Source of the DNA: Alphaproteobacteria bacterium
GTDB taxonomy: Bacteria; Pseudomonadota; Alphaproteobacteria; Paracaedibacterales; CAIULA01
Reading direction: 5' to 3'
NCBI GenBank assembly: GCA_947475175.1
Contig: CANJLN010000001.1
Coordinates: forward strand, 24,305 to 48,304
DNA length: 24,000 nucleotides
A program made the position numbers and the translations under genes. Below the pieces are notes generated by a model that searched no databases, was not told the DNA's origin, and saw nothing but the letters and a program-made list of their open reading frames with translations. This document shows, one piece after another, positions 2,556 through 24,000 of the stretch (within the stretch, counting starts at the first letter, position 1; each line of letters starts with the position of its first letter).

Positions 2556-3347
2556 TTGCTAAAACTACCACCTCTTATCTTCGGCACATTCATCAAACGA
2601 TATAAACGATTTTTTGTGGATGTGCTGTTAGAGGATGGAATTGAAGTCACAGCCCATTGTCCCAATCCAGGCGCAATGTTGGGCGTTTTAGATCCTGGTA
2701 ACCGAGTAGCCATCACCCATAACAGCAATCCGGCCCGAAAATTATCCTATACCTGGCAATTGGTCGAGGCCGAGGGGACATGGATTGGCGTTAACACACA
2801 TTTGACCAATGAAATTGCGGCTGCGGTTTTGGAACAGCAATTAAGGCTGTCATCCTCGGACTTGTTCCGAGGATCTAAAGATTCTCGCAATAAATGCGAG
2901 AATGACACTATAGGCGGGGTGTGTAGAGGCGCTCTAACTGAACTTTCTCTCTATTCAACCATCCAACGTGAAGTCAAATATGGGATTAATTCTCGCATTG
3001 ATTTTTTGTTAACGGGCGAAGGTTTACCACCCTGTTATTTAGAGGTGAAAAACGTTCATCTGAAACGAAATGGTGTTGCTCAGTTTCCTGATTGCGTGAC
3101 AGCCAGAGGAGCCAAACACATGGCTGAATTAACATTGATGCGTCAGCAAGGCGTGCGATGTGTGATTTTGTATATTGTGCAGCGAAATGATGTCAAAGAA
3201 TTTGCCTTGGCTGCCGATATTGATCCTGCTTATGCCAAGGCCTCAGAAATTGCCAAAGCCAGCGGCGTTGAAATGCTAGCCTTGGGATGTGAGTTTGATT
3301 TAGAAAAAGATTATGTCTCCTTTTTCAACAGACTTTTAGTGAGTTAA
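2556..3347 (+). CDS. sfsA: Sugar fermentation stimulation protein A (SfsA) homolog carrying an in-frame ~30-aa insertion
   Basis: TTG start. The N-terminus LPPLIFGTFIKRYKRFFVDV...HCPNPGAM matches E. coli SfsA ([20 protein letters not shown]...HCPNTGAM). Later blocks are REVKYG-NSRIDFLL, YLEVKNV and FPDCVTARGAKHMAEL. The length is 263 aa against ~234 aa for E. coli (recalled), and the excess maps to the repeat at 2847-2907. Confidence 0.9.
   Translation: MLKLPPLIFGTFIKRYKRFFVDVLLEDGIEVTAHCPNPGAMLGVLDPGNRVAITHNSNPARKLSYTWQLVEAEGTWIGVNTHLTNEIAAAVLEQQLRLSSSDLFRGSKDSRNKCENDTIGGVCRGALTELSLYSTIQREVKYGINSRIDFLLTGEGLPPCYLEVKNVHLKRNGVAQFPDCVTARGAKHMAELTLMRQQGVRCVILYIVQRNDVKEFALAADIDPAYAKASEIAKASGVEMLALGCEFDLEKDYVSFFNRLLVS
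2847..2907 (+). repeat. Double-hairpin palindromic element (TGTCAT...ATGACA termini), copy 1, inside sfsA
   Basis: The sequence is CTGTCAT-CCTCGGActtgtTCCGAGG-ATCT-AAAG-ATTCTCGCAataaaTGCGAGAAT-GACA. It has two 9-bp stems and TGTCAT/ATGACA terminal inverted repeats. The first 30 nt are identical to 4148-4177 and to the reverse complement of 13800-13829. It is read in frame as LSSSDLFRGSKDSRNKCEND. Confidence 0.9.
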
Positions 3348-4106: not shown

Positions 4107-4147
4107 TTTTATTCCTTTAGTTGTTGCTTAAGTATCTTTCAACGCTA

Positions 4148-4233
4148 CTGTCATCCTCGGACTTGTTCCGAGGATCTTTTGAAGTTTGTTAACCCCTTCC
4201 TGAGATTCTCGGAACAAGTCCGAGAATGACAAG
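4148..4233 (+). repeat. Double-hairpin palindromic element, copy 2, full-length and intergenic
   Basis: The left arm CTGTCATCCTCGGACTTGTTCCGAGGATCT (4148-4177) is followed by a 25-nt spacer. The right arm AGATTCTCGGAACAAGTCCGAGAATGACAAG (4203-4233) is the near-perfect reverse complement of the left arm. The two arm differences (C to T and G to A) are compensatory within the right hairpin. Confidence 0.9.
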
Positions 4234-4350
4234 AGCAGATTCGGGAATGATAATATGCTCATTCTTATGCCCACTTCATCTGTGGAAATCAAGCCGATTT
4301 TTCTCTTATTGCCTTTGATCCATTGGATCGCTTATATTGTTGAGTATGTT

Positions 4351-5262: not shown

Positions 5263-6954
5263 TTACCTATAATCTTTTTCTAGAAAATCCTTCGGCTGAG
5301 TCTGGTACTTAGCAATTTGTCTTTTTTCAAAAGCTTCCTTAACCTTTTCATCAGCCAACGCCTTTAAGAGAACTTCACCAAATATAGGATCAGAACCAAC
5401 AATATCTTTTACTACTATCTTAGCTTGCTCTCTCAAAGTAGAGCCTCCCCCATCTAGAAAGTAATCGTCAATTGTATTTCTACTAAAAACAAAATCAATG
5501 CAATTCTTTCCTATCTCTAACCGAACCAAGAGGTTTCCAAGATGATCCATGCTGTTGTGCCATACAGTTTCTTTAACAAGATTCATTTTTTGCAGCTTTC
5601 CAGTATTTTCTCTTAAAGAGTATTTTTTCTTGGGATCATTTGGGCTTTGAGATAGTTCTATTATTTGTCCTTTATCTGCCATCCCAGAAAGCCTATTAAT
5701 GACAGAACGTTTACTAATACCAACACAACTGGTAATTTGGTGTGTGGACAGAGGCCCACAAAAAGTCAAAAGACCAAAGATAAATTGATCAAGATCATTC
5801 ATAATAAATTGACTCACCTTTTGCTTATAAAAGGTGACCCGAATGCGAGGGCCAATTTCTTCAAAATAGGGAGCTTCTAAGCCTGCTTCTAAACAAGCAT
5901 TAGTCATTCTTGTAATACCGCTGCCCCATTGCTCAATTAATCCTAACTCATTAAAAACACGAGCTATTATTGGATTGCGTAGTTTTGAAACACCCGCTTT
6001 CAAATCCTCAAACGTTAACCCCCATGGTAAAAGAGCACTATTTTCTATCTCAACTCGATCTTCAAAAACAGCAACTTTAATGGTAGCCCCTAAAGAATAG
6101 TCTGTATGGACAACAGCATTGATAATAGCTTCTCGCAAAGCCACTTTAGGAATTTCCCAGACTTCTTGATGCTGGATATTATTAATTTCCAACCCAACAC
6201 GCAGATTTCTTTTAACAAAGTTAAGAGTTTCCTCAACTGCTTGAGGAAAAAAAGTTGTAATTTTTTGAGTGTCTAAAATTTTTGTCTTTTCAAATCTCTC
6301 AAAAGCACCAACTTGAATCCAAGCATCAGGGAAAAACTTAAGACGGTCCTTTCCAAACAAAAGAATTCCGCCAACAGTTGGCATTAATTCTTTACCTTGC
6401 TTTACAATGATTCCAAGTGACACAAAATCACTTTGTTGTAGTTTCCTATGAGGTTCAAACAACTGTGTAGCAGCTGTGAAATCAATATCTTCACAGCTTG
6501 TTTCATAGCATGGCTCTTCATCAAAAGTTTTAGCGATGGTTGATCTTTCAATCACTTTTAGTAAAGCTGCATCAGCTTGCCGTGTTGTTGACCCTATTCG
6601 AACATATGTTGAGGTTTCTCTACCTTTTGATTTTATATAATGGGGCCTGACAGAACTTGGGTAAACCTCTACTGATATCAAATGAGTGTTTCTATAAGGA
6701 ATAACTTCTATATTGGGTAAAATTCTAGGCTCTATCATTTCATGAATTTTGTTGGAAAGTACCTCAGTGACTTTATGAGGATCTTCAACACCTACAATAT
6801 GTCGTGTTTTATCCTGCACCCCTATAATCACACGACCTCCAGAGGTATTAGAAAAAGCAATCAGTGTTGAGATAATCTTATCTTCAGATTTTATGTTCTC
6901 TTTAAATTCTAGGGTAGTTCCTTCATTTCCTTGAAGAATCTCATCAATTTTCAT
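5263..6954 (-). CDS. Schlafen/AlbA_2 (divergent AAA_4) plus HATPase_c_4 plus winged-HTH protein with an extra ~110-aa C-terminal domain
   Basis: The AlbA_2 signature is EGTTLEFKE...IAFSNTSGGRVIIGV...VRPHY...YVRIGSTT. The HATPase_c_4-like block is REAIINAVVHTDYS...NPIIARVF...WGSGITRM. An HTH-like segment (LSTHQITSCVGISKRSVINRL) follows, then an unassigned tail. The ORF track starts at a TTG at 7020. The ATG at 6954 (MKIDEILQGNEGTTLEFK) fits family N-termini better, so the start is uncertain. Confidence 0.75.
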   Translation of the reverse strand: MKIDEILQGNEGTTLEFKENIKSEDKIISTLIAFSNTSGGRVIIGVQDKTRHIVGVEDPHKVTEVLSNKIHEMIEPRILPNIEVIPYRNTHLISVEVYPSSVRPHYIKSKGRETSTYVRIGSTTRQADAALLKVIERSTIAKTFDEEPCYETSCEDIDFTAATQLFEPHRKLQQSDFVSLGIIVKQGKELMPTVGGILLFGKDRLKFFPDAWIQVGAFERFEKTKILDTQKITTFFPQAVEETLNFVKRNLRVGLEINNIQHQEVWEIPKVALREAIINAVVHTDYSLGATIKVAVFEDRVEIENSALLPWGLTFEDLKAGVSKLRNPIIARVFNELGLIEQWGSGITRMTNACLEAGLEAPYFEEIGPRIRVTFYKQKVSQFIMNDLDQFIFGLLTFCGPLSTHQITSCVGISKRSVINRLSGMADKGQIIELSQSPNDPKKKYSLRENTGKLQKMNLVKETVWHNSMDHLGNLLVRLEIGKNCIDFVFSRNTIDDYFLDGGGSTLREQAKIVVKDIVGSDPIFGEVLLKALADEKVKEAFEKRQIAKYQTQPKDFLEKDYR

Positions 6955-11025: not shown

Positions 11026-11325
11026 TTATGAAATTTGTATGCGATGGGTTCCTTTTTCTAAAACAAGGTGATAGCCACAAGCTTCTGCAATATTAACAAA
11101 GTTTTTCATTTTTAAGTCTTCTTGCTTGCCGGTGCGAAGTTTTTGAATGACAGCGGGGGATAATCCCACCTCATCTGCTAATCCTCTAACTGTTTTTTGC
11201 CCCTCTTCCATCAAGTCAACCAACAACTCTGACCACAGAAATTCTTTATAGCCCTCTTCAAAATCCTTTTTAAAGATAGGGTCTTTCATCTCTTGGTCAA
11301 ATGTCGATATTTTTTTTCTATTCAT
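11026..11325 (-). CDS. XRE/HTH-type antitoxin (HigA-like)
   Basis: 99 aa with an HTH segment (TVRGLADEVGLSPAVIQKLRTGK). It overlaps the upstream toxin gene by 8 nt, in the toxin-first order typical of HigBA/Gp49 modules. Confidence 0.7.
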   Translation of the reverse strand: MNRKKISTFDQEMKDPIFKKDFEEGYKEFLWSELLVDLMEEGQKTVRGLADEVGLSPAVIQKLRTGKQEDLKMKNFVNIAEACGYHLVLEKGTHRIQIS

Positions 11326-11704
11326 AATACGTCCCCTCTTTTAGTCGCCTTTGATAATTTTCTCTACAGGCTAAAGCCCGTTCTTTTTCACCCTGAGGCA
11401 ATTTCTGTTGTTTTTTTCTAAAGCCATTGGTAATGATAATTTTACTGTCCTGTATGAAAAAACACAGAAATCTCTCTGGATGAGGCTTAAAAGCGTAAAT
11501 TTGGTCACCCTCGTAATTAAATTTAGTTTTGTCACTAATTCTGCCGAAATCACCCATCCTCTTTGCCAGAAAAAGAAATTTCTTACGCTGACCAGTATCA
11601 AGACTTTGATAATAGTCTAAAGCTAAACTTTCTCCATTTTCAGAGACATACCATTCAACGGTAAAAGAATGGCCTTCGTAAGCGATGTATTGTTTTTCTT
11701 TCAT
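11318..11704 (-). CDS. Gp49-like (DUF891) RelE/HigB-superfamily toxin
   Basis: 128 aa. The pattern KFLFLAKRMGDFGRISDKTKF...YAFKPHPERFLCFFIQDSKIIITNGFRKKQQKLPQGEKERA matches the phage Gp49-like toxin family (...RilyfF...kiillthgF.KK..ktP..Ei..A). Confidence 0.75.
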   Translation of the reverse strand: MKEKQYIAYEGHSFTVEWYVSENGESLALDYYQSLDTGQRKKFLFLAKRMGDFGRISDKTKFNYEGDQIYAFKPHPERFLCFFIQDSKIIITNGFRKKQQKLPQGEKERALACRENYQRRLKEGTYYE

Positions 11705-11885: not shown

Positions 11886-12758
11886 ATGGATTTTCTTAAC
11901 ACACGCTCTCATTCAGCAGATTTAAGTTACGTTCGAGAAGCGATGAAAATGCCATTACTAGACAGAGAAAAAGAGATGAGCCTCGCTCGTGCTTGGTCAG
12001 AGGATCAAGATGAGAAAGCTTTTCAAGAACTGGTATGCGCTTACACGCGTCTTGTGGTCAGTGTAGCTTTGCGTTACCGCAACTATGGATTACCTGTCAG
12101 TGATTTAATTCAAGAAGGAAATATAGGGCTTTTACAAGCGGCTATTCGTTTTGACCACACTCGAGACGTGCGTTTTTCTACCTATGCAAAATGGTGGATA
12201 CGAGCTTGTATTCAAGAATTTATCTTAAGAAATTGGTCAATTGTGCGAACGGGTTCAACTTCAGCTCATAGAAACCTATTTTTCAATCTGAATCGCCTTC
12301 GCAATCAATTGCTTTCTCTCACAACAGACACCATGACATTACAAGACCAAACCGTTATTGCAGAACATCTTCATGTGACCATTCGACAAGTAGAGGAAAT
12401 GGAATACCGACTTGCTGGCCATGACCTGTCTTTAAGTCATCCCATCAGTGAATACGGAGAAGAAGATTGGCAGGATCTTTTACGTGATGTTCGACCAAAT
12501 CCAGAAGAAACAAGTGTTGAAGAACATTCAGAACAAAATCGTCTGCACTGGATTGAAGAAGCGATGGGCTGCCTGAATCCAAGAGAACAATACATCATCA
12601 CACAAAGACGTTTGACTGATTCTCCTTTGACTTTAGAAGAGCTTGGTAAAAAACTTTCCATCACCAAAGAGCGAGTTCGTCAACTTGAGGCAAAAGCTCT
12701 GAGACGCATGCGGTATTTCTTTATGGAGAGTATGTACGAGGTTCGCCAGACTCTTTGA
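11886..12758 (+). CDS. rpoH: RNA polymerase sigma-32 (heat-shock sigma factor RpoH)
   Basis: Sigma70-family regions are present: 2 (DLIQEGNIGLLQAAIRFD, STYAKWWIRACI) and 4.2 (LEELGKKLSITKERVRQLEAKALRRMR). The diagnostic RpoH box is also present (HRNLFFNLNRLR). Confidence 0.9.
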   Translation: MDFLNTRSHSADLSYVREAMKMPLLDREKEMSLARAWSEDQDEKAFQELVCAYTRLVVSVALRYRNYGLPVSDLIQEGNIGLLQAAIRFDHTRDVRFSTYAKWWIRACIQEFILRNWSIVRTGSTSAHRNLFFNLNRLRNQLLSLTTDTMTLQDQTVIAEHLHVTIRQVEEMEYRLAGHDLSLSHPISEYGEEDWQDLLRDVRPNPEETSVEEHSEQNRLHWIEEAMGCLNPREQYIITQRRLTDSPLTLEELGKKLSITKERVRQLEAKALRRMRYFFMESMYEVRQTL

Positions 12759-12888
12759 TACACCCTTCACCTTTCAAGAACCCTGTTCGTCAAAGTTCGG
12801 AAATCTTCGGTGCTCATGTATTTCCATATACATTCCGCTCCTCGACCCTTGTTTTCCTGCAGGTTTCTTGAAATTCATTGGGTATATA
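12758..12888 (+). repeat. ~130-bp palindromic-ended repeat element, copy A, intergenic
   Basis: It aligns by eye over its whole length with the reverse complement of 21688-21817, at roughly three-quarters identity with long identical runs such as AATCTTCGGTGCTC and CCGCTCCTCGACCCT. Its imperfect terminal inverted repeats are cACCCttcaccTTTCAAGAA and TTCTTGAAAttcattGGGTa. Confidence 0.85.
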
Positions 12889-12889
12889 A

Positions 12890-13504
12890 TTATTTATTTC
12901 TTTTCCAGGCGGCCCAAGCACCTATCATAATAATAATAAGCAGAATAACGCTTAGAAAATATTTCTGAACCGTTTCGAAATTCTCAATGATGCTGATCAT
13001 AACGTCCCCTAACAAATAACCGCTGATGCAGCTGACAAGTGTCCAGATGATCGCTGATAAAATATTTAGAGGAATATAACGCTGGGGGGAGATTCCAGCT
13101 GCACCAATCACAACGGCACTACTAATTCTAATACCATAAATAAAACGTGAAAGAATAATAAACCAAATATCGTATTTGTGAAGAAGTCTAAAAGCTTTCT
13201 CTGAAGATTTTTTTAAACTTGGAAAACGTTCAAATATTGCAGGCCCATAAGCACGCCCCACAAAATACAACACTTGATCAGCGATCAATGTACCAAAAAA
13301 CGCAATAATCATAATTTTGTAAAGGGAGAGATAACCAGCGTAAGCCATAGAACTCGCCGTTAAAATAACAGACTCGCCTTCGATTAAAGATCCCAAAAAA
13401 ACTGCCCAGTATCCCCATTCTTGTACAAAGGCAATAAACTGTTCCAACTTTTTATCCTGATTTTGGGCGTTTCCACCTAAGGAGAATAGCAAAGATTGAA
13501 CCAA
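12890..13504 (-). CDS. dedA: DedA/SNARE-associated family inner-membrane protein
   Basis: Family blocks are GYWAVFLGSLIEGESVILTA, YFVGRAYG and LSRFIYGIR, with multiple TM helices. The annotated ATG overlaps the ccmF/H 3' end by 53 nt, so the true start may be further downstream. Confidence 0.75.
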   Translation of the reverse strand: MVQSLLFSLGGNAQNQDKKLEQFIAFVQEWGYWAVFLGSLIEGESVILTASSMAYAGYLSLYKIMIIAFFGTLIADQVLYFVGRAYGPAIFERFPSLKKSSEKAFRLLHKYDIWFIILSRFIYGIRISSAVVIGAAGISPQRYIPLNILSAIIWTLVSCISGYLLGDVMISIIENFETVQKYFLSVILLIIIMIGAWAAWKRNK

Positions 13505-15656
13505 ACAACAACGCCCAAGGCAGCAACCACAAAGGAATTGTGTGCAATTTTAAAGGAGGTTTCAAAGTGATATTTTCTCCATATTTTTTTATTAAGTCCT
13601 GAAGGACACCTTCTTCTGATTGTCCTTCTTTTAGAGATTGAAAAATATCTTGTTTCATAAGGATTGCTTGATCACTTTGTGAATCCTCTAAGACTTGCCC
13701 TGCGCAGACTGGGCAAATGATTTTCTTATAAAGAGAATGTGCTGTTTCTTCAGTATTGCTTGCATAAGAAGCCCCCCCTATAAGCAACAGGCAGATGACA
13801 GATCCTCGGAACAAGTCCGAGGATGACAGAGTAGAGTTAGAGGATGATAAAAACGAAAACCGTTTGATTGCCCCTAAAGCACCCCCTACAACCATTAAGA
13901 TAATCCCGAACCATAATAAATTCATAAAAGGTTTATAATGAACTTTAAGTTCTATAGTTTCGTTTGAATCATCAATAAGGGCTGTATAGATGTGTGAAAA
14001 AAGAGTGGAATAAATCGCTGTTTCATTGTGAATGATTTTCTGCGTTTCGTAATATCGTTTTTCTGGAACCAACTGCGTTATCTCTTTTCCTGAATGGGAG
14101 ATGTTTAGAACAGCTTGATGAGCCGTATAATTGGGACCTTGTTTTATTTGTAAATTTTTAAATGCGCCTGTGTAGCCTGCAATATTAAAAGACTCCTCTT
14201 TTTTAAGAAAGACATGCTGTTCAATTTCTCCATAAGTGGAGCACACCATGCCCAAAACACATAAACCCAAACCAAAATGAGCAAAAATCATCGAAAGAGT
14301 TTTAAGATTGATTGGATGTGATTTCAGATAAAGAAGAGTACTGATCATTACCCAAACTGATAATCCTGTGGCAAAGAAAGCAAGAAACGAAGGATGTGGT
14401 AATAACCACCAACACAACAAGACGGAAAGAAGCGAAGCACTAAAAGCCGACAAAAGCTTTTCGTAATGTTTCCAAATGCCGACCCCCATCAATCCTAACA
14501 AAGGCAGCATCAAAGGAATAAACGTTGCTTGAAAATAAGGTGTGCCGATTGTAATGCTTTTTCCAAAATAAGAGAGAATCAGCGGATAGAGAATGGATAT
14601 AAAAATGGTCGCCGTGCCACAAAATAAAAATACGTTATTAAGTGCTATCATGCCGGGGCGTGACCAAGGTGAAGAGATGGGTAAGCCTTGAAAAATAGAG
14701 AATCTCCATATCCACAAAACGATAGAGGGAAGCGTGAAAGTACATAAAAGAATGAGCAACAAGACACCCCGTTCAGGATCAACGGCAAAACTATGGACTG
14801 ATGTTAAAAGTCCAGAGCGAACAAAAAATAGAGAAAAAAGACATAATCCAAAGGTGAGGATGCCTAACAAAAGAGATACGCGTGTCAAAGTTTGCTGCTT
14901 TTGAGCGCAAATAATACTGTGCAAGAAAGCCGTTGCTGTTAACCAAGGAAGAAGGGCCGCATTTTCAACCGGATCCCAGAACCAAAACCCACCCCATCCC
15001 AGTTCATAATAAGCCCAAAAACTGCCCAAAGCTAAGCCCGCGGTCATAAAACTCCACGAAACAAGCATCCAAAAACGAAGCGCTGAAATATGATTTATCG
15101 AGAGAGTTCCCTGCAACAAAGCAACTACACATAAGGCAAAGGGGACGCTGCAACCAACATAACCCGCATAGAGAATGGGGGGATGGATAGCCAAGCTTGG
15201 GTCTTGCAGCAAGGGGTTCAGATCATTGCCCTCTAACAAAGGAATTTCTAAGGTGATAAACGGATCGCTAGCAATCAGAACAAAAATAAGAAATCCTAAA
15301 ATAATCGAGGTTAAAATGCGACCCGTTGGTTCTTTGAGATTTTGAGGGAGGAAATAGGAAGAAAGACTGGTGTAAAAGCTTAAGATCAACACCCATAGAA
15401 GCATTGATCCCTCGTGATTTCCCCAAACACCACTGATTTTATAGAGAAGGGGTTTTGATGTATGAGAATGCTGAACAACATTCAGATACGAAAAATCTGA
15501 GGTGACATGCGCCCACATAAGTGTCCCAAAGGCGATGGCGATCCAGAAAAATATGACATGAGAAAATACTGGTCTGAATTTTTTTAAAAGGATGTGACTG
15601 ACGCAAAACAGCGAAGCTATGAGTAGGCATGCTTGACCGAAGAGAGCGGAGGTCAT
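13452..15656 (-). CDS. ccmF: Cytochrome c-type biogenesis protein CcmF (heme lyase subunit) fused in one ORF to a CcmH/CycL-like C-terminal module
   Basis: The CcmF hallmarks are WGNHEGSMLLW, the WWD-type motif GWGGFWFWDPVENAAL and many TM helices through about aa 600. Residues ~620-734 carry a signal-like segment (VICLLLIGGASYA), then the CcmH pattern IICPVCAGQVLEDSQSDQA...KKYGENITLKPPL plus a terminal TM helix. The joint is encoded by the repeat at 13795-13829. Confidence 0.85.
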   Translation of the reverse strand: MTSALFGQACLLIASLFCVSHILLKKFRPVFSHVIFFWIAIAFGTLMWAHVTSDFSYLNVVQHSHTSKPLLYKISGVWGNHEGSMLLWVLILSFYTSLSSYFLPQNLKEPTGRILTSIILGFLIFVLIASDPFITLEIPLLEGNDLNPLLQDPSLAIHPPILYAGYVGCSVPFALCVVALLQGTLSINHISALRFWMLVSWSFMTAGLALGSFWAYYELGWGGFWFWDPVENAALLPWLTATAFLHSIICAQKQQTLTRVSLLLGILTFGLCLFSLFFVRSGLLTSVHSFAVDPERGVLLLILLCTFTLPSIVLWIWRFSIFQGLPISSPWSRPGMIALNNVFLFCGTATIFISILYPLILSYFGKSITIGTPYFQATFIPLMLPLLGLMGVGIWKHYEKLLSAFSASLLSVLLCWWLLPHPSFLAFFATGLSVWVMISTLLYLKSHPINLKTLSMIFAHFGLGLCVLGMVCSTYGEIEQHVFLKKEESFNIAGYTGAFKNLQIKQGPNYTAHQAVLNISHSGKEITQLVPEKRYYETQKIIHNETAIYSTLFSHIYTALIDDSNETIELKVHYKPFMNLLWFGIILMVVGGALGAIKRFSFLSSSNSTLSSSDLFRGSVICLLLIGGASYASNTEETAHSLYKKIICPVCAGQVLEDSQSDQAILMKQDIFQSLKEGQSEEGVLQDLIKKYGENITLKPPLKLHTIPLWLLPWALLFGSIFAILLRWKRPKSG
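13795..13829 (-). repeat. Single-hairpin copy of the palindromic module, copy 3, at the ccmF/ccmH junction
   Basis: The minus strand reads CTGTCATCCTCGGACTTGTTCCGAGGATCTGTCAT. The first 30 nt are identical to 2847-2876 and 4148-4177, and the hairpin core is bracketed by a direct CTGTCAT repeat. It is translated in the same frame as in sfsA (LSSSDLFRGS). Confidence 0.9.
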
Positions 15657-16762: not shown

Positions 16763-18881
16763 GAGTCTTTGGCTTTTTTGTCTCTTCTCGTTTTTTCTTT
16801 TTTCGCTCCAAAGCTTGTTCTCGATAATGCATCCCTATGTCTCGATTAGAAACGCCCTTTTTCCGCTCAAATCCCTCTCGAGGACTGAAACTCTTTTCTG
16901 ACTTAGAAGAATCTCTTCCTTTTGGCATACTCTGTCCTGTTAATGAAAAAGAAATGGAACACGTTATGGGATCAGCGGCATCCAATAAGACTGTCAGAGG
17001 TTGCCCCAGTTGATAAACTTTCTTTGTGCGCGACCCTATATAACGATGAAGGTTGGTGTCAAAAACATAATAATCACCTGGCAGACGGCTTTTGGGAACA
17101 AACCCTTGTGCACCGTTATCGTCCAAACCAATAAAAAGACCCGCACTGCTAACGCCAACGATGCTGCCCTTGAAAGAAGATCCAACTTGATTTTCTAAAT
17201 AAGAGGCGAGATAGCGATCCATCACTTCTCGCTCTGCCGTTGCTGCGATACGTTCCGTTGCTGAAATATGATCGCCAATCATTTCCAAAACTTCTAGCGG
17301 GAGAGATTCTTGACCTCCCTCACCCAACTCCAAAGCCTCTATTAAAGCGCGGTGAACAACCAAATCTGAATAACGTCGAATAGGTGACGTAAAATGGCAA
17401 TATTGGGCCAAACTTAAGCCAAAGTGCCCAATATTTTGAGGAGCATAACGTGCTTGAGCTTGGGAACGCAAAACCAAATCATTAATAAGACGCATGTAAG
17501 GAGACGCAGACGACTCTGTTAAAATTTGATTGAACTGGATAGGAGAAAGTTTCTCAGCCTTAGGAATAGTGATCTTAAACGATTTTAAAAGCGTCCTTAG
17601 GTTTTCAACGCGCGCTGCATCAGGTATGTCATGAATACGGAAAAGAGTTGGCCAATTTTTAACAAGCAATGTTTTAGCAGCAGCCACATTAGCTGCAATC
17701 ATCATCTCTTCAATAAGTTGATGGCTATCTAATCTTTCTCTTGGAACAATATCTTTAACAAATCCTTTTTCATCAAATTTAACCTGACGTTCAGGGATGT
17801 TTAAATCCAATGTTCCGCGTTTATGTCGCGCTTTTAAAAGTGTTTTGTAAGCGCCATACAAGGGTTTAATCACCCCTTCATAAATAGGTTTTGTTACGTC
17901 ATCAAGTGTTCCATTGATGGCATTTTGGACTTGTGCATAGGTAAGCCTCGCACACGACCTCATGAGTCCACGTTTGAACCGATGTGATTTAATTTTGCCA
18001 TAGCTATCGATAACTATTTCAGCGACCAAGCATGCTCTATCTTGATGGGGTTTTAAAGAACAAAGATCGTTCGATAAAGCCTCAGGTAACATTGGGACAA
18101 CGCGATCAGGAAAATAAACAGAATTCCCTCTTAGATAAGCTTCACGGTCCAAAGCATCAGCAGGGCGTACATAATAAGAAACATCAGCGATGGCAACAAT
18201 CATTCTCCATCCGCCTACGTTTTGAGGATCAATATCAGCTGCGGCCCATACGGCGTCATCGAAATCTCTGGCATCTTCGCCATCGATAGTCACAAGCGGA
18301 ATGTTTCTTAAATCAACACGATCTCCAAGTGGGGGAACTTTACCCTTTGAAGCCAAGTCCAAGGCATCTTGATTATAGTCATAAGGGAGTTTGTGAGCAT
18401 AAACAGCCATCAAACTAAAGACTTTTGGATCAGTGATTGACCCCAATCTTACATCGATATGAACTTTTTTTCCTTTTAGGTGATAAAAAACAACATCACC
18501 TTCGGTCAGAGTATCTGCTAGATCTTTTTCGCAAAACACACCCGGAAAGGTATCTTTTCTGTGGCAAGGGACCAAACTTGAACCATTATGTTTTCTTTGA
18601 AAAAGACCCAAATGAAATTCTGTTTCATCCTTTTTATAACGAAACTTCTCTTTATTCGTTACTTCAGAATTAACTGGTGGCTCTTTTTTTCTAAGTTTAG
18701 AACCATAACCTTCTTCTTTTAATTCAGCAAGAATGTGCTTCAATAGCCTGCGACGCGCTCCCTTAACTCCCAAAACTTTAGCAATTTCATGCTTGGTTAC
18801 CAAATGATGGCTATTGGTGATAAGTTTTAAAACGGCTTTTTTCAGGTCTTCTGCATCTCTGTCTTGAATGTCTTGGCTCAT
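16737..18881 (-). CDS. rnr: Ribonuclease R (RNB-family 3'-5' exoribonuclease)
   Basis: RNB catalytic motifs are present (TIDGEDARDFDDAV, YFPDRVVPMLPEALSNDLCSL, HFGLSLAQYCHFTSPIRRYSDLVVHR). There is also a C-terminal S1-like domain (FKGSIVGVSSAGLFIGL) and a Lys-rich basic tail. The 3' end overlaps the ccmE start by 26 nt. Confidence 0.9.
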   Translation of the reverse strand: MSQDIQDRDAEDLKKAVLKLITNSHHLVTKHEIAKVLGVKGARRRLLKHILAELKEEGYGSKLRKKEPPVNSEVTNKEKFRYKKDETEFHLGLFQRKHNGSSLVPCHRKDTFPGVFCEKDLADTLTEGDVVFYHLKGKKVHIDVRLGSITDPKVFSLMAVYAHKLPYDYNQDALDLASKGKVPPLGDRVDLRNIPLVTIDGEDARDFDDAVWAAADIDPQNVGGWRMIVAIADVSYYVRPADALDREAYLRGNSVYFPDRVVPMLPEALSNDLCSLKPHQDRACLVAEIVIDSYGKIKSHRFKRGLMRSCARLTYAQVQNAINGTLDDVTKPIYEGVIKPLYGAYKTLLKARHKRGTLDLNIPERQVKFDEKGFVKDIVPRERLDSHQLIEEMMIAANVAAAKTLLVKNWPTLFRIHDIPDAARVENLRTLLKSFKITIPKAEKLSPIQFNQILTESSASPYMRLINDLVLRSQAQARYAPQNIGHFGLSLAQYCHFTSPIRRYSDLVVHRALIEALELGEGGQESLPLEVLEMIGDHISATERIAATAEREVMDRYLASYLENQVGSSFKGSIVGVSSAGLFIGLDDNGAQGFVPKSRLPGDYYVFDTNLHRYIGSRTKKVYQLGQPLTVLLDAADPITCSISFSLTGQSMPKGRDSSKSEKSFSPREGFERKKGVSNRDIGMHYREQALERKKKKREETKKPKTHAPKSPTP

Positions 18882-19273
18882 ACTAGCTTTAACTTATGTC
18901 CTTAGTTGTTCAACTCCAACATATCATATATTCAGAGAATCAACAAATAGACCAAAAGGGCAGCAACAATTCCCGAAGAGGATTAGGTGTAATTTTTGGT
19001 TAAGGTTCAGTGAATAACACCCACTAAATAGCTGGGGCAAAAACAAGAACGGGTTGCATACATAACTTAATAACACTGGGTTTAGTCGAGACTTGCAAAA
19101 AATTTATCACAAAACCCTCTAAATTGCTCGCTTTATCAACCTTCCGGGAATTGATGATCTTTTGATTTGACGTTTTTTAAACACTTCAACAATTTGAAAA
19201 TGAACCCTCTTGATTTCTTCCAGAGTTATTGCCTAGGTTATATCGTAAGGATTTTTAAATTTAGTTATTTCAT

Positions 19274-19957
19274 ATGCCTCAGTCAGGTCAAAAAACAATC
19301 ATTGCGCCATCGCTCCTCTCTGCGGATCTTTTGAATCTACAGACAGAAATTGATCTTATTACCAAAGCAGGTGCTGACTGGCTTCATCTTGATATCATGG
19401 ATGGGCATTTTGTGCCCAATCTAACTTTTGGTCCTGAATTTGTAAGGCAAATTAAAAAGATTTCTCAATTGCCAATCGATGTACACTTGATGATTTCGCC
19501 TGCAGATGCTTTTATTGATGCCTTTGCCAAAGCCGGCGCCAGTTACATAACGATTCATCCTGAGGCTGATTTTCACCCGCATCGAACGTTGCAAAAAATT
19601 AAAAGCCATGGTGTTAAAGCTGGCATCGCTTTGAGTCCGGGGACACCCATTGAAACGGTGTATCCTTTGCTAGAAATAATCGATCTCATTTTAATTATGA
19701 CTGTTAATCCAGGATTTAGCGGACAGAAGTTTATAGCCCATCCTCTTGAAAAATTAAAAGCCTTAAGAAAGTTAATTGATACACATAAATATCCTATATT
19801 ATTAGAAGTCGATGGCGGTGTTGATAAAACAACAGCCAAAGAAATTACCTGTGCGGGCGCTGACGTTCTTGTGACGGGTCAGTATGTTTTTTCAAAGGAT
19901 ATGCCTGTATCTTCTGACGTTTATAAATCTCGTATTGAAGATCTAAGGAAACAATGA
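19274..19957 (+). CDS. rpe: Ribulose-phosphate 3-epimerase
   Basis: Motifs are APSLLSADLLNL, HLDIMDGHFVPNLTFGP, MTVNPGFSGQKF and EVDGGV. Confidence 0.92.
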   Translation: MPQSGQKTIIAPSLLSADLLNLQTEIDLITKAGADWLHLDIMDGHFVPNLTFGPEFVRQIKKISQLPIDVHLMISPADAFIDAFAKAGASYITIHPEADFHPHRTLQKIKSHGVKAGIALSPGTPIETVYPLLEIIDLILIMTVNPGFSGQKFIAHPLEKLKALRKLIDTHKYPILLEVDGGVDKTTAKEITCAGADVLVTGQYVFSKDMPVSSDVYKSRIEDLRKQ

Positions 19958-21606
19958 GTCAACATCCCGTCTTGTCTCAGTTCAGTTATTTTTTGCATCG
20001 ACTGGCGCAAAAGTATCGTCTGTATGGGGTAACTCTTTTAGGGCGGTCTACTTCTGAATTATTAACGATCCCATCAGATCCCTGGCCTGGGAATTTTCAA
20101 GTGGCTCACACAATACTCGAGGGAGCGTTTCCTTTTCGTGGGCAACTGATCCCTCTTAAAGATTGTTTGGATTATTTAGGGCGGCCTGATCGGTGCCCAA
20201 GTCCTCTTCTGCCCAGATTGCACGGGTTTGAATGGCTCAAGGATTTGCGTGCTATCAGTACGAACCCCAGCAGGAAAAGAGCACGTCAACTGATTATGCA
20301 CTGGATCAATCAGAATCATTCTTGGTCTACAAAGAGCTGGCTATCTCCTGCTTGGCGCCCTGACATTACAGCCAATCGCCTATCGAGCTGGATTTCTGTT
20401 TATGATTTCTTTGGAGCCAGTGCGGATGATTTTTTTAAGCAAGCCTTTTTTAGAAGCTTGATGAAGCAGTACCGCTATTTGCGTCGCATTTACACAAGCA
20501 TCACCGATCCTTTGCAGGCTTTCATCGTCTTAAAAAGCCTCATTGCTTGTGCTTGCACTTTACCAAGACAAAAAGGGAGGATCCCTTCTTTTGTGAACAG
20601 TCTTCAAAAAGTTCTAAAAGCGCAGATTTTGGCTGATGGAGGGCATGTCAGTCGATCCCCAGCTTTGCAGCTCATTATTTTGCGAGATCTGATTGATATT
20701 CGTTCCCTTTTAAAAAATATAGAAGCTGAAGATCCTCCTTTTTTACAACAAGCCATTAATGTGATGGCGCCTATGGTCAGACTCTTCCGGCATGGGGACG
20801 GGGGATTAGCTGATTTTGCAGGCAATATCGATCCCTGTTCTCTAAGCTTTGATCCTGAAAATATTTCACCTGCCGTTGTTGATATGGCTTTGTCTTTGGC
20901 CGATGTACGAGGGCGTCCTCCTGGTCGTGCGCCTTATATGGGCTACGAAAGATGCATAGGGAAGTCAGGGTTGATTCTACTGAATGTCAAACCTTCTTAT
21001 AATGAAGTGCCGCTTTTAACAACAGAGGGAGAGCCAGGCGTTAATATTTTAGATTTCGAATGGAGTGTTGGCAGGCAACGAATTCTTAGACGTTCTGATC
21101 TGATCGTTCAGCTTTCCGATCATTCCTGGCTTAAGATTGATAATGACCAGGGAAGTCTTGCGCTGAAAAGACACAGCAAAGATGGAAATGGCTATCTTTC
21201 AGCTGACTTTGATCAGTTCATTCGAGGCGTTTCTTATCGACACCAGCGACAACTTTATCTAGGCGGAGAAGAAGGGGACTTTAGAGGACATGATATCTTT
21301 ACTCTTTCTCAACCAGCAATGGCCGCAGTCCGGTTCATTTTTTCTAGGAATGTCGAAGTTTTATCGCAAACCACAAAGAAAATTAAAATTAAAGTCTATC
21401 CATCTGCTGCAATTGCAGGAAAAGGAGAGTCAAAAAAAACAGTGCAAACATGGAGTTTTATCACAAAAGGAGCGAGCGATGCCCTTTGGCAACATTGCAA
21501 AGAAACAGGGTTGCCGTATTTGATGCTTTTGACACCCCTTGTAAAAGAAGAGGCGCAAACGATCAAATGGGCCTTTCGTTTGGATGAAAATATTGAGAAA
21601 AGGTAA
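19954..21606 (+). CDS. Heparinase II/III-like family protein (conserved alphaproteobacterial protein of unknown role)
   Basis: 550 aa. The start overlaps the rpe stop (ATGA). The blocks ADGGHVSRSPALQ and FRHGDGGLADFAGN resemble the heparinase II/III-like family as I recall it from alphaproteobacterial annotations. This is recollection, not a verified match. Confidence 0.5.
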   Translation: MSQHPVLSQFSYFLHRLAQKYRLYGVTLLGRSTSELLTIPSDPWPGNFQVAHTILEGAFPFRGQLIPLKDCLDYLGRPDRCPSPLLPRLHGFEWLKDLRAISTNPSRKRARQLIMHWINQNHSWSTKSWLSPAWRPDITANRLSSWISVYDFFGASADDFFKQAFFRSLMKQYRYLRRIYTSITDPLQAFIVLKSLIACACTLPRQKGRIPSFVNSLQKVLKAQILADGGHVSRSPALQLIILRDLIDIRSLLKNIEAEDPPFLQQAINVMAPMVRLFRHGDGGLADFAGNIDPCSLSFDPENISPAVVDMALSLADVRGRPPGRAPYMGYERCIGKSGLILLNVKPSYNEVPLLTTEGEPGVNILDFEWSVGRQRILRRSDLIVQLSDHSWLKIDNDQGSLALKRHSKDGNGYLSADFDQFIRGVSYRHQRQLYLGGEEGDFRGHDIFTLSQPAMAAVRFIFSRNVEVLSQTTKKIKIKVYPSAAIAGKGESKKTVQTWSFITKGASDALWQHCKETGLPYLMLLTPLVKEEAQTIKWAFRLDENIEKR

Positions 21607-21664
21607 CTGCTCTTAATCTGTTCATGCTTCTTGATAAAAATGCTTTTGCCCTTTAAATATAAAA

Positions 21665-24000
21665 CATGCAAACATCTTCATCTCCATTTATACCCAATAA
21701 GATTCAAGAAGCTGGGCAGGAGCTCGAGGGTCGAGGAGCGGAGTGTATAGATGATACTCGAGCACCGAAGATTCCCGAAGAGCGACGAACCCAGAGCTTG
21801 AATCATGAAGGGTATATACATTTACGCCTGCATAGTGCTTATTCGCTAGCAGAGGGAGCTATCCACACCAAAAACATCGCAAAGCTTTGCCAAGGCTATC
21901 AAATGCCCGCTATTGGTATTACAGACACAAACAATTTGTTTGGCGCTCTTGAAATTGCGATGGCTTGCGCGGAGGAGGGAATTCAACCCATTATCGGTTG
22001 CCAGATCCAAATGCTTTTTAGTGACAAACATCCCGTCCGTCCCATTGTGCTTCTTGCGCAAAGTGAACAGGGATATAAAAACCTTCTCAAACTTGTCAGT
22101 CATTTCTATTTGAGGCAACAAAATTTAAATGAACCGCATATTACACTCAGTGAATTAGAAGAACGCAATCAAGGGCTTATTTTATTAACAGGGGGACATC
22201 TTGGTCCTGTGGGACATCTTTTGAACGCTCAAGAGAAAGATGAAGCAATTGATCTTTTAAAAACGCTTCAAAAAATATTTGGAGACCGTCTTTATATTGA
22301 ATTGATGCGTCACGGTCTGGTTGAGCAAAAGCGGATTGAACCTCAGTTCTTAGAGCTTGCTCTTGAATACAATATTCCAATCGTTGCAACGAATGATGTG
22401 TTTTTTGATAAGCCGAGTATGTATGAAGCTCATGATGCGCTTTTATGCATTGCTGAGGGAAGCTATATCAGTCAGGACAATCGTCGTCGTGTGACACCGC
22501 ATCATTATTTCAAAAACAGTGAAGAGATGAGCAAGCTATTTGCTGATCTGCCTGAAGCTATTCAAAACACAAGCGTTATTGCTCAGCGTTGTCATTTTAT
22601 GCCGCTTCCCCGTAAACCGATTTTGCCTCCTTTTCTAACTGAGTCAGGTAGAAGTGAGACAGATGAATTGCGAGAGCAAGCTCACCTTGGGTTGGAAAAA
22701 CGCTTGGAAAAAGAGGTTTACCCTCTGCATACCGATCAAAGTCAGCATGAAGCACTCAAAAAAAACTACTTTGAACGATTAGAATATGAACTTGAAATTA
22801 TCGAAAAGATGGGCTTTCCAGGTTATTTTCTGATTGTTGCTGATTTTATCAAATGGGCTAAAAACCAAGGCATTCCCGTTGGTCCTGGTCGTGGATCCGG
22901 CGCTGGGTCATTGGTTGCATGGGTTTTAACGATCACAGATATGGATCCAATACGTTTTAACCTTCTCTTTGAGCGTTTTTTAAATCCAGAACGCGTCTCT
23001 ATGCCTGACTTTGATATCGACTTTTGTCAGGATCGCCGAGATGAGGTGATCAGTTATGTGCGGGATAAATATGGCGAGGATAAGGTTGCGCACATTATCA
23101 CTTTTGGTAAATTGCAGGCTCGTGCTGTTCTTCGTGACGTTGGTCGCGTGATGCAAATGCCATACGGACAGGTGGATCGCATTTCCAAGCTTGTGCCTAA
23201 TAACCCAGCCAATCCGGTAACTTTAGAGCAGGCTTTGGAGCTGGAGCCCGCTCTAAAACAACAACAAGAAGAAGATGAAACTGTTGCAAAATTAATTGAT
23301 ATCGGCATGAAGCTCGAAGGGCTTTATCGTCATGCATCAACTCATGCTGCAGGTGTTGTGATTGGCGATCGTCCTTTGGATGATCTCGTTCCTCTCTATA
23401 AAGATGAGAAATCAACATTGGCAGCGACGCAATTTAGTATGAAATATGTAGAAGCTGCAGGTCTTTTGAAATTTGACTTTTTGGGCTTGAAAGCTCTGAC
23501 CGTCATTCAAAAATGCTGTGATCTAGTACAAAAAACTGGAATTGATCTTGATATCAGTACCATTCCTTTAGATGATCCAAAAACATTTGAGCTTCTTTGT
23601 CGCGTCGAAGTGGTTGGTGTGTTCCAGCTTGAAAGTGCGGGCATGCGTGATGTTTTGCGCAAACTAAAACCAGATCGTTTTGAAGATTTGATTGCACTTG
23701 TGGCTCTTTACCGTCCAGGGCCGATGGACGACATTCCAAGATATCTTGCCTGTAAGCATGGGGAAGAGGCCGTTACCTATTTGCAGCCCGCTCTACAACC
23801 AATTCTCGAGCCAACTTATGGTGTTATGGTTTACCAAGAACAGGTTATGGAAATTGCTCAGGTGTTAGGAGGGTATACACTTGGCGCTGCTGATTTGTTG
23901 CGTCGTGCGATGGGTAAAAAGATTAAATCAGAGATGGATGATCAGCGGGCTTTGTTTACAGAGGGAGCCGTTAAAAATGGCGTTGAGCCCTCAGTTGCCA
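21665..24000 (+). CDS. dnaE: DNA polymerase III alpha subunit DnaE, 3'-truncated by the window edge; the start codon is ambiguous (ATG 21665 or in-frame TTG 21797)
   Basis: The frame is open from 21665 to the window end. It is not in the ORF track because no stop is reached. The PHP domain is YIHLRLHSAYSLAEGAI...ITDTNNLFGALE...IQPIIG, followed by GFPGYFLIVADFI, PVGPGRGSGAGSLV, PDFDIDFCQ and HAAGVVI. Confidence 0.92.
21688..21817 (-). repeat. ~130-bp palindromic-ended repeat element, copy B, inverted relative to copy A and inside the open 5' end of dnaE
   Basis: The reverse complement aligns end to end with 12758-12888. It encodes PFIPNKIQEAGQELEGRGAECIDDTRAPKIPEERRTQSLNHEGY in the dnaE frame without a stop. 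Confidence 0.85.

Follow-up and report, generated by a model that had tools for sequence, protein, structure and literature searches.

Where does dnaE begin when a palindromic repeat lies open in frame at its 5' end? The question is raised by a 24,000-nt stretch of an alphaproteobacterial genome (contig CANJLN010000001.1, positions 24,305 to 48,304; hereafter the window), which lies within a 71-kb metagenome scaffold (ENA ERZ28612979, MEHR18-2_SAMN08331103_METAG-scaffold_3521) of which we read ~62 kb. The original prediction, made from the letters of the window, left two answers: either the repeat encodes an N-terminal extension of DnaE, or translation starts at an in-frame TTG and the repeat forms a structured 5' untranslated region. 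The open frame and the peptide quoted for it were both correct. The dnaE frame is open from ATG 21666–21668, which had been placed one base low at 21665, to the end of the window; the TTG is present at 21798–21800, again one base off the position first given (21797), and the conserved YIHLRLHSAYSL begins at 21813. The gene caller of the scaffold likewise starts a DnaE of 1188 residues at ATG 21666. Furthermore, 21689–21818 indeed matches 12757–12886 in inverted orientation, with 75% identity over 130 nt (blastn E = 8e-19). Comparison with a second strain that lacks the repeat points to a third answer, an insertion inside the gene.

A look-up of a neighbouring protein led to contigs of this second strain (strain B; L009, L017, L018 and L019), in which DnaE has 1146 residues and begins with MQTSSSPFIHLRLHS, compared with 1188 residues in the window strain (strain A). 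The empty dnaE allele of strain B starts from the same ATG, preceded by an unchanged 59-nt spacer to the upstream gene, and reads MQTSSSPFIHLRLHSAYSL. Alignment of the two alleles showed near-identical flanks and exactly 126 extra bases in the window, which make 42 stop-free codons; the coding sequence measures 3567 nt in the filled and 3441 nt in the empty form. TATAC is found a single time in the empty allele, whereas in the filled one it borders the insert on either side. Outside the insert, the two DnaE proteins are identical at 1131 of 1139 residues and both fall into one 90% protein cluster, while DNA identity between the strains amounts to 97–98.5%. The two dnaE genes differ by 59 synonymous and 7 non-synonymous changes, giving a dN/dS (non-synonymous to synonymous rate ratio) of 0.032. 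The filled allele, with an identical 1188-residue product, was found on 4–6 independently assembled contigs of up to 113 kb (NCBI and ENA), and the empty allele on three. Since both alleles recur on several contigs, a one-off misassembly is ruled out.

Judged by this pair of alleles, the native start of dnaE is ATG 21666, because the empty allele starts at the same ATG. By the same comparison, the repeat sits within the gene, where it adds 42 codons in frame behind codon 9; the insertion is polymorphic between strains and, given a near-identical strain without it, recent. Thus DnaE does carry repeat-encoded residues, as one of the two original answers had it, but they are placed inside the protein and not in front of it. 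The fear that the open frame was merely a chance run-on is answered by the sister strain, which lacks exactly these 126 nt. Taken as a whole, the reading that a palindrome resembling a miniature inverted-repeat transposable element (MITE) inserted in frame into dnaE and is read through from the native ATG has, in our estimate, a probability of roughly 0.8. The features on which it is built are listed in Table 1.

Table 1. Features of the dnaE insertion and of its sister copy (window coordinates)
Feature	Position	Strand	Basis
Native dnaE start and codons 1–9 (MQTSSSPFI)	21666..21692	+	ATG, 59-nt spacer and first 9 codons identical in empty allele; gene caller agrees
Element copy 1, 124-bp imperfect palindrome, TACCCAAT...GAAGGGTA, read in the dnaE frame	21691..21814	+	Missing from empty allele; hairpin; covariance-model match of 145 bits
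126 nt = 42 codons (PNKIQEAGQELEGRGAECIDDTRAPKIPEERRTQSLNHEGYI) extra relative to empty allele	21693..21818	+	Alignment; boundaries slide within the repeated TATAC
Left target copy TATAC	21689..21693	+	Right copy at 21815–21819; empty site CCATT-TATAC-ATTTA
Conserved core block 1, GGGTCGAGGAGCGGAGTGTA	21728..21747	+	Five-member alignment: invariant save one R position
Conserved core block 2, GAGCACCGAAGA	21760..21771	+	Preceding codon CGA here; TGA in this frame in 4 of 5 copies
Element-supplied in-frame TTG, a possible but unlikely start	21798..21800	+	Missing from empty allele; paired in stem; aligns with DnaE profile position 1 and most orthologs
Rest of dnaE, PHP domain onwards, running off the window end	21813..24000	+	NCBIfam NF004226 (DnaE), residues 48–776, 1080 bits
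Element copy 2, 124 bp, TA on both sides, between rpoH and dedA	12761..12884	-	Sequence match; covariance model

The symmetric solution for the insert is a 124-bp element flanked by a duplicated TA (21689–21690 and 21815–21816). Both copies in this genome have a unit length of 124 + 2 = 126 bp, and TA stands at eight of the ten element ends in the five copies known in all. Another candidate for the target duplication, CATTTA (21685–21690 and 21819–21824), was rejected, as its excision breaks the frame and the empty allele shows TATAC to be the repeated motif. Copy 1 is predicted to fold into a hairpin of -51.7 kcal/mol (z = -7.8) and copy 2 into one of -40.4 kcal/mol (z = -4.6). Copy 2 fills the space from the rpoH stop codon (TGA, 12756–12758) to that of the convergent dedA gene (12890–12892); it is identical in another sample (L028), and three short-read contigs (Logan) end within it. 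Sequence searches and the covariance model found no third copy within the window, and the ~62 kb read hold one further 124-bp copy beside that in dnaE, two in all. No transposase, RAYT (REP-associated tyrosine transposase) or TnpA gene was seen in that stretch, nor a parent insertion sequence (IS) with matching ends. The element gave only tRNAs and noise in Rfam, both at the gathering threshold and at E values up to 10, and a sigma-70 promoter scan of 21300–22000 returned no match.

Beyond the two copies of the window, family members were found on L001 (a JGI metagenome contig, Ga0116230_10185061), L020 (an ENA contig) and L025 (an uncultured alphaproteobacterial metagenome-assembled genome, MAG; CAIULA010000008.1). 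The five copies have in common an invariant core, GGGTCGAGGAGCGGARTGTA ... GAGCACCG, and similar termini, with TACCCAAT / ATTGGGTA-like ends conserved in four of them; the most conserved part in the alignment is the centre of the element, not its termini. The arms diverge yet stay complementary, with compensatory changes in 11 of 40 stem pairs. In L025, the copy (6270–6396) exactly fills the gap between the aspS stop and the ruvC ATG, and its terminal GAAGGG, 5 nt before the ruvC start, could serve as a ribosome-binding site. In L001, the copy (984–1112) lies inside a long open reading frame (ORF): one frame continues on both sides of the element, which itself has two stops in that frame, and the ORF could represent a pseudogene, a split gene or something of another nature. 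Neither of the ORF halves beside the element had a match in Pfam.

Wider searches added little to the family. The covariance model detected no further copies over 129 kb of fetched loci, and a pattern of the two core blocks matched one metagenome contig and none of the genome contigs. The 20-nt core, searched as an exact match in 185,579 GTDB species-representative genomes, gave four matches, one of them in an uncultured alphaproteobacterial MAG; core matches in Desulfuromonadaceae, Streptomyces and Prevotella were set aside as chance, with no element around them. Viral contigs contained no match to the 20-nt core. When all open frames of copy 1 were used as peptide queries, one unrelated small ORF (P0125) in another frame was returned, which an exhaustive HMMER search found again; a further HMMER match, P0126, was regarded as a spurious ORF of tandem-repeat junk. 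The core peptides of the other copies matched nothing in the peptide search. On this comparison of copies, the element is a member of an undescribed, non-autonomous MITE-like family.

The coding frame of the dnaE copy differs from its relatives at one telling position. A TGA stands just before the GCACC of core block 2 in four of the five members, while the dnaE copy has CGA, which also converts a G-U pair to a G-C pair. That the dnaE copy alone lacks this TGA is the pattern to be expected from survivorship filtering, provided that translation does pass through the frame. In each of the other four copies, the dnaE frame is interrupted by 2–3 stops, and the copies share no more than short core words such as GRGAEC in it. 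On account of its composition, the pyrimidine-rich strand is free of stops in most copies.

Among the 37 called genes of the window and the flanking scaffold (L007, L008 and L021), a Shine-Dalgarno (SD)-like motif precedes nine starts and AU-rich sequence precedes most of them; the start codon is ATG in 30 genes and TTG in one. Since few starts carry an SD-like motif and ATG prevails, it is normal for this genome that ATG 21666 has an AU-rich leader without an SD motif. The predicted mean probability of being unpaired around this ATG is 0.58 in both alleles, and that of the TTG bases is at most 0.01. These data disfavour the second of the original answers, in which DnaE is made from the element-borne TTG 21798 (MNHEGYIHL...) and the old nine codons and the element form a structured leader, or else a short upstream reading frame. 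Such a start would align with position 1 in the DnaE profile as well as with most ortholog starts, and the loss of nine poorly conserved native residues should be harmless; we nevertheless consider it unlikely, as the native ATG and its leader are untouched and ribosomes from there read through. The TTG, moreover, is fully paired in the predicted copy 1 hairpin, follows GC-rich sequence unlike the other starts of this genome, has neither an SD motif nor an AU-rich leader, and is a codon with which one of the 37 genes starts; its use would also leave the missing TGA of the dnaE copy unexplained. Some initiation at TTG may occur alongside that at ATG.

The protein evidence bears on the same choice. 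Among the best 120 DnaE homologs, identity to the window protein is at most 56% and none covers the first ~45 query residues; the best matches, 55–56% identical, come from MAGs labelled Rhodospirillales or Micavibrio. The cluster holding the organism's own DnaE is part of the collection but was not among the proteins returned. The orthologs carry an HL[RH]xHS motif 6–12 residues from their start, and their first residues corresponding to the native nine are poorly conserved. With the repeat taken out, the native N-terminus MQTSSSPF-IHL resembles those of orthologs such as MSASPAPFIHL and MKKSPFIHL. Alignment with orthologs, proposed earlier as a check on the start, thus accommodates both the ATG start minus the repeat and the TTG start. 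The full-length DnaE equivalog model NF004226 scores above its cutoff of 1002 bits within the part of the protein encoded in the window, and the complete scaffold protein has PHP, pol3_alpha, finger, HHH_6 and OB domains.

An AlphaFold2 model of 400 residues, computed with 61 aligned sequences, reached a mean predicted local distance difference test score (pLDDT) of 86.9. The score stays under 50 over residues 1–45 and exceeds 90 in the PHP fold, from about residue 51 onwards. The column aligned with residue 50 holds F in at least 90% of homologs. In the filled allele, Y50-I51 is encoded by the element end and the duplicated TA (TAT-ATA), yielding a Y-I-H-L junction compared with the native F-I-H-L. 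The product is most likely a read-through DnaE with an insert of 42 residues, modelled as disordered, just before the first PHP strand. The predicted tryptic peptides of this insert are IQEAGQELEGR, GAECIDDTR and TQSLNHEGYIHLR.

Two snapshots of one locus, filled and empty, enable us to propose a putative course of events. A non-autonomous palindromic element with termini TACCCAAT...GGGTA and a conserved central core would insert at the TA within TTT-ATA-CAT, codons 8–10 of dnaE. Its mobilisation in trans is probably due to a TA-targeting transposase of the IS630/Tc1-mariner type; this step is the weakest, because no transposase was seen in the ~62 kb read. As 126 bp are added and copy 1 is stop-free in the landing frame, the dnaE frame stays unbroken, and an open frame is to be expected since only stop-free, multiple-of-three insertions would survive in such a gene. 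Initiation would remain at ATG 21666 with its AU-rich, unstructured leader unchanged, and ribosomes would unwind the hairpin to produce the 1188-residue DnaE. Residues 10–51 of this protein would be element-encoded, hydrophilic and disordered, and would stand just before the first PHP beta-strand. Finally, the element end and the duplicated TA would rebuild the conserved aromatic-Ile-His-Leu junction, and the essential polymerase probably tolerates the insert because the junction is rebuilt as Y-I-H-L.

Several points weigh against this course of events. The TTG start would give the commonest ortholog length, the H falling at index 7 in 73 of 115 orthologs, and the match to the NCBIfam DnaE model begins at residue 48 with position 4 of the profile. 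Three of the six frames of copy 1 are open, partly for compositional reasons, so that the open frame alone is modest evidence, and translation through the element is deduced from its sequence. The direction of the event, an insertion in strain A as opposed to a precise excision in strain B, is judged from orthologs without an insert. The TA duplication would be indistinguishable from other choices of boundary within TATAC (0–5 bp), and a second copy of dnaE may exist elsewhere in the genome, of which ~62 kb of scaffold were read.

Two further explanations fare worse than the TTG start. The very stable hairpin has its pairing maintained by covariation, and the L001 ORF keeps its frame on both sides despite the two stops in the element; one could therefore imagine that the element is removed or processed in the RNA, for example by RNase III cutting of the hairpin, and that its real role is to control the stability of dnaE mRNA. 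We hold this to be very improbable, since a cut 24 nt past the start would leave an essential gene without an intact message, the element has no match in Rfam, and L001 is a single case that may be a split gene or pseudogene. We know of no way in which bacteria would re-join an mRNA after hairpin cleavage. Least credible of all is an assembly artefact, or the mark of a decaying or redundant dnaE whose frame is open by chance: although the sequence comes from a metagenome scaffold, some assemblies do break at repeats and the chance of 42 stop-free codons is ~0.1–0.5 for this element, the identical product recurs on independently assembled contigs, the difference is one exact 126-nt unit with a target duplication, and all 1188 codons are intact with the dN/dS given above.

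The two strains also differ around dnaE. A large rearrangement separates window ~18881–19274 and L008 5343–5532 from L017 7201–7609. In strain B, a Na/H exchanger gene neighbours the block of rpe, a 550-aa gene and dnaE; strain A has ~28 kb, running from the Na/H exchanger to RNase R, between the exchanger gene and this block. The rearrangement junction of strain B contains ~265 nt of unique sequence. Just downstream of dnaE, the HigB-like and Gp49 genes differ in length by strain (63 vs 92 aa and 101 vs 49 aa, respectively), and several genes of toxin-antitoxin type, Gp49/HigB-like with helix-turn-helix (HTH) partners, flank the region at window 11318–11704 and L007 15276–16790. The 550-aa gene upstream of dnaE (19954–21606) has no NCBIfam match and, in Pfam, only sub-threshold matches to the N- and C-terminal domains of heparinase II/III.

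A second, unrelated repeat family was seen in the same genome. Its 30-nt hairpin units (CTGTCATCCTCGGACTTGTTCCGAGGATCT) lie at window 2847–2907, 4144–4236 and 13800–13829 and at L021 20515–20576. They end in GTCAT/ATGAC, as do the Rickettsia palindromic elements (RPEs) RPE-4/6/7 and Wolbachia elements (PMC3767692). One copy is in frame in sfsA, where it splits the SfsA profile match at about residues 97–126, and another, in frame where ccmF meets ccmH, creates a fusion protein of 734 aa; LSSSDLFRGS is encoded by both. The original prediction had rightly recognised these two in-frame repeats, but had counted them together with the dnaE element, which belongs to another family. Upstream of rplM, strain A has a copy that strain B lacks.

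In summary, the gene model of dnaE is settled: it starts at ATG 21666 and has an internal insert of 42 codons, neither an extension nor a long leader. The two alleles form a before-and-after pair for an in-frame mobile insertion in an essential gene within one species, which is rare. In Rickettsia, where the insertions are ancient and common to species, neither the time at which one occurred nor its target site nor its immediate cost can be observed. Gene calls from metagenomes with odd N-terminal segments can conceal mobile repeats, and repeats like the dnaE element fragment short-read assemblies. By its sequence features, the element would be a new family of a kind already known. More speculatively, and with clearly more doubt than confidence, "protein-coding palindromes" might be more than a relic of Rickettsia and still be arising today through an active family in an uncultured freshwater alphaproteobacterium, its unit length and hairpin shaped for survivable insertions into genes, essential ones included. 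If so, the filled and empty dnaE alleles would serve as an experiment made by nature, from which one could learn how a new segment of 42 residues is tolerated, or put to use, by a replicative polymerase.

How does the element compare with known systems? Like the REP (repetitive extragenic palindromic) and BIME (bacterial interspersed mosaic element) repeats mobilised by RAYT (IS200/IS605-like), it is a hairpin repeat whose pairing is kept by compensatory changes, which would suit a single-stranded intermediate. However, REPs are 20–40 nt long, extragenic and without target duplication, whereas the dnaE element measures 124 bp and has an apparent TA duplication and terminal inverted repeats; nor does the ~62 kb read show a RAYT or TnpA gene, as noted above.

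Its architecture resembles that of MITEs of the ERIC (enterobacterial repetitive intergenic consensus) and Correia type, which duplicate TA and are mobilised in trans. At ~124 bp (theirs ~125–150 bp), the dnaE element is an imperfect palindrome over its whole length with TA flanks, codes for no transposase, is polymorphic between strains and has copies packed exactly between gene ends. It differs from them in sequence, in that its centre and not its termini are most conserved, and in that no parent IS was seen in the ~62 kb read. Intragenic ERIC copies with ORFs are mentioned in a passage of PMC10969869 that cites Delihas 2007.

In behaviour, the dnaE element recalls the RPEs, of which RPE-1 to RPE-3 reportedly form the subject of two papers by Ogata et al. 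(2000, Science 290:347; 2002, Genome Res 12:808). RPEs are palindromic repeats of 100–150 bp that lie within genes and keep the frame (PMC10969869, PMC3767692, PMC1458961), and their insertions are common to orthologs across Rickettsia species and ancient (PMC3767692). The dnaE element is also palindromic, falls into the 100–150 bp range and has an alphaproteobacterial host; its copies are both intergenic and in genes without frame break, with a hydrophilic peptide where the fold tolerates it, and its genome has a second short palindromic family that is likewise in frame. There are differences, too. No sequence relationship was detected, the exact-core scan of the 185,579 genomes having matched no Rickettsiales (by exact matching, with no RPE consensus aligned). 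The peptide of the dnaE element is not conserved across copies, which have stops in the dnaE frame elsewhere, and the insertion is polymorphic between ~98% identical strains, unlike the ancient RPE insertions. The host here is an uncultured alphaproteobacterium from a freshwater metagenome, whose DnaE shares no more than 56% identity with any match from the protein database searched. By analogy, the RPEs would thus be the closest known system in behaviour, and the ERIC/Correia-type MITEs the closest in architecture.

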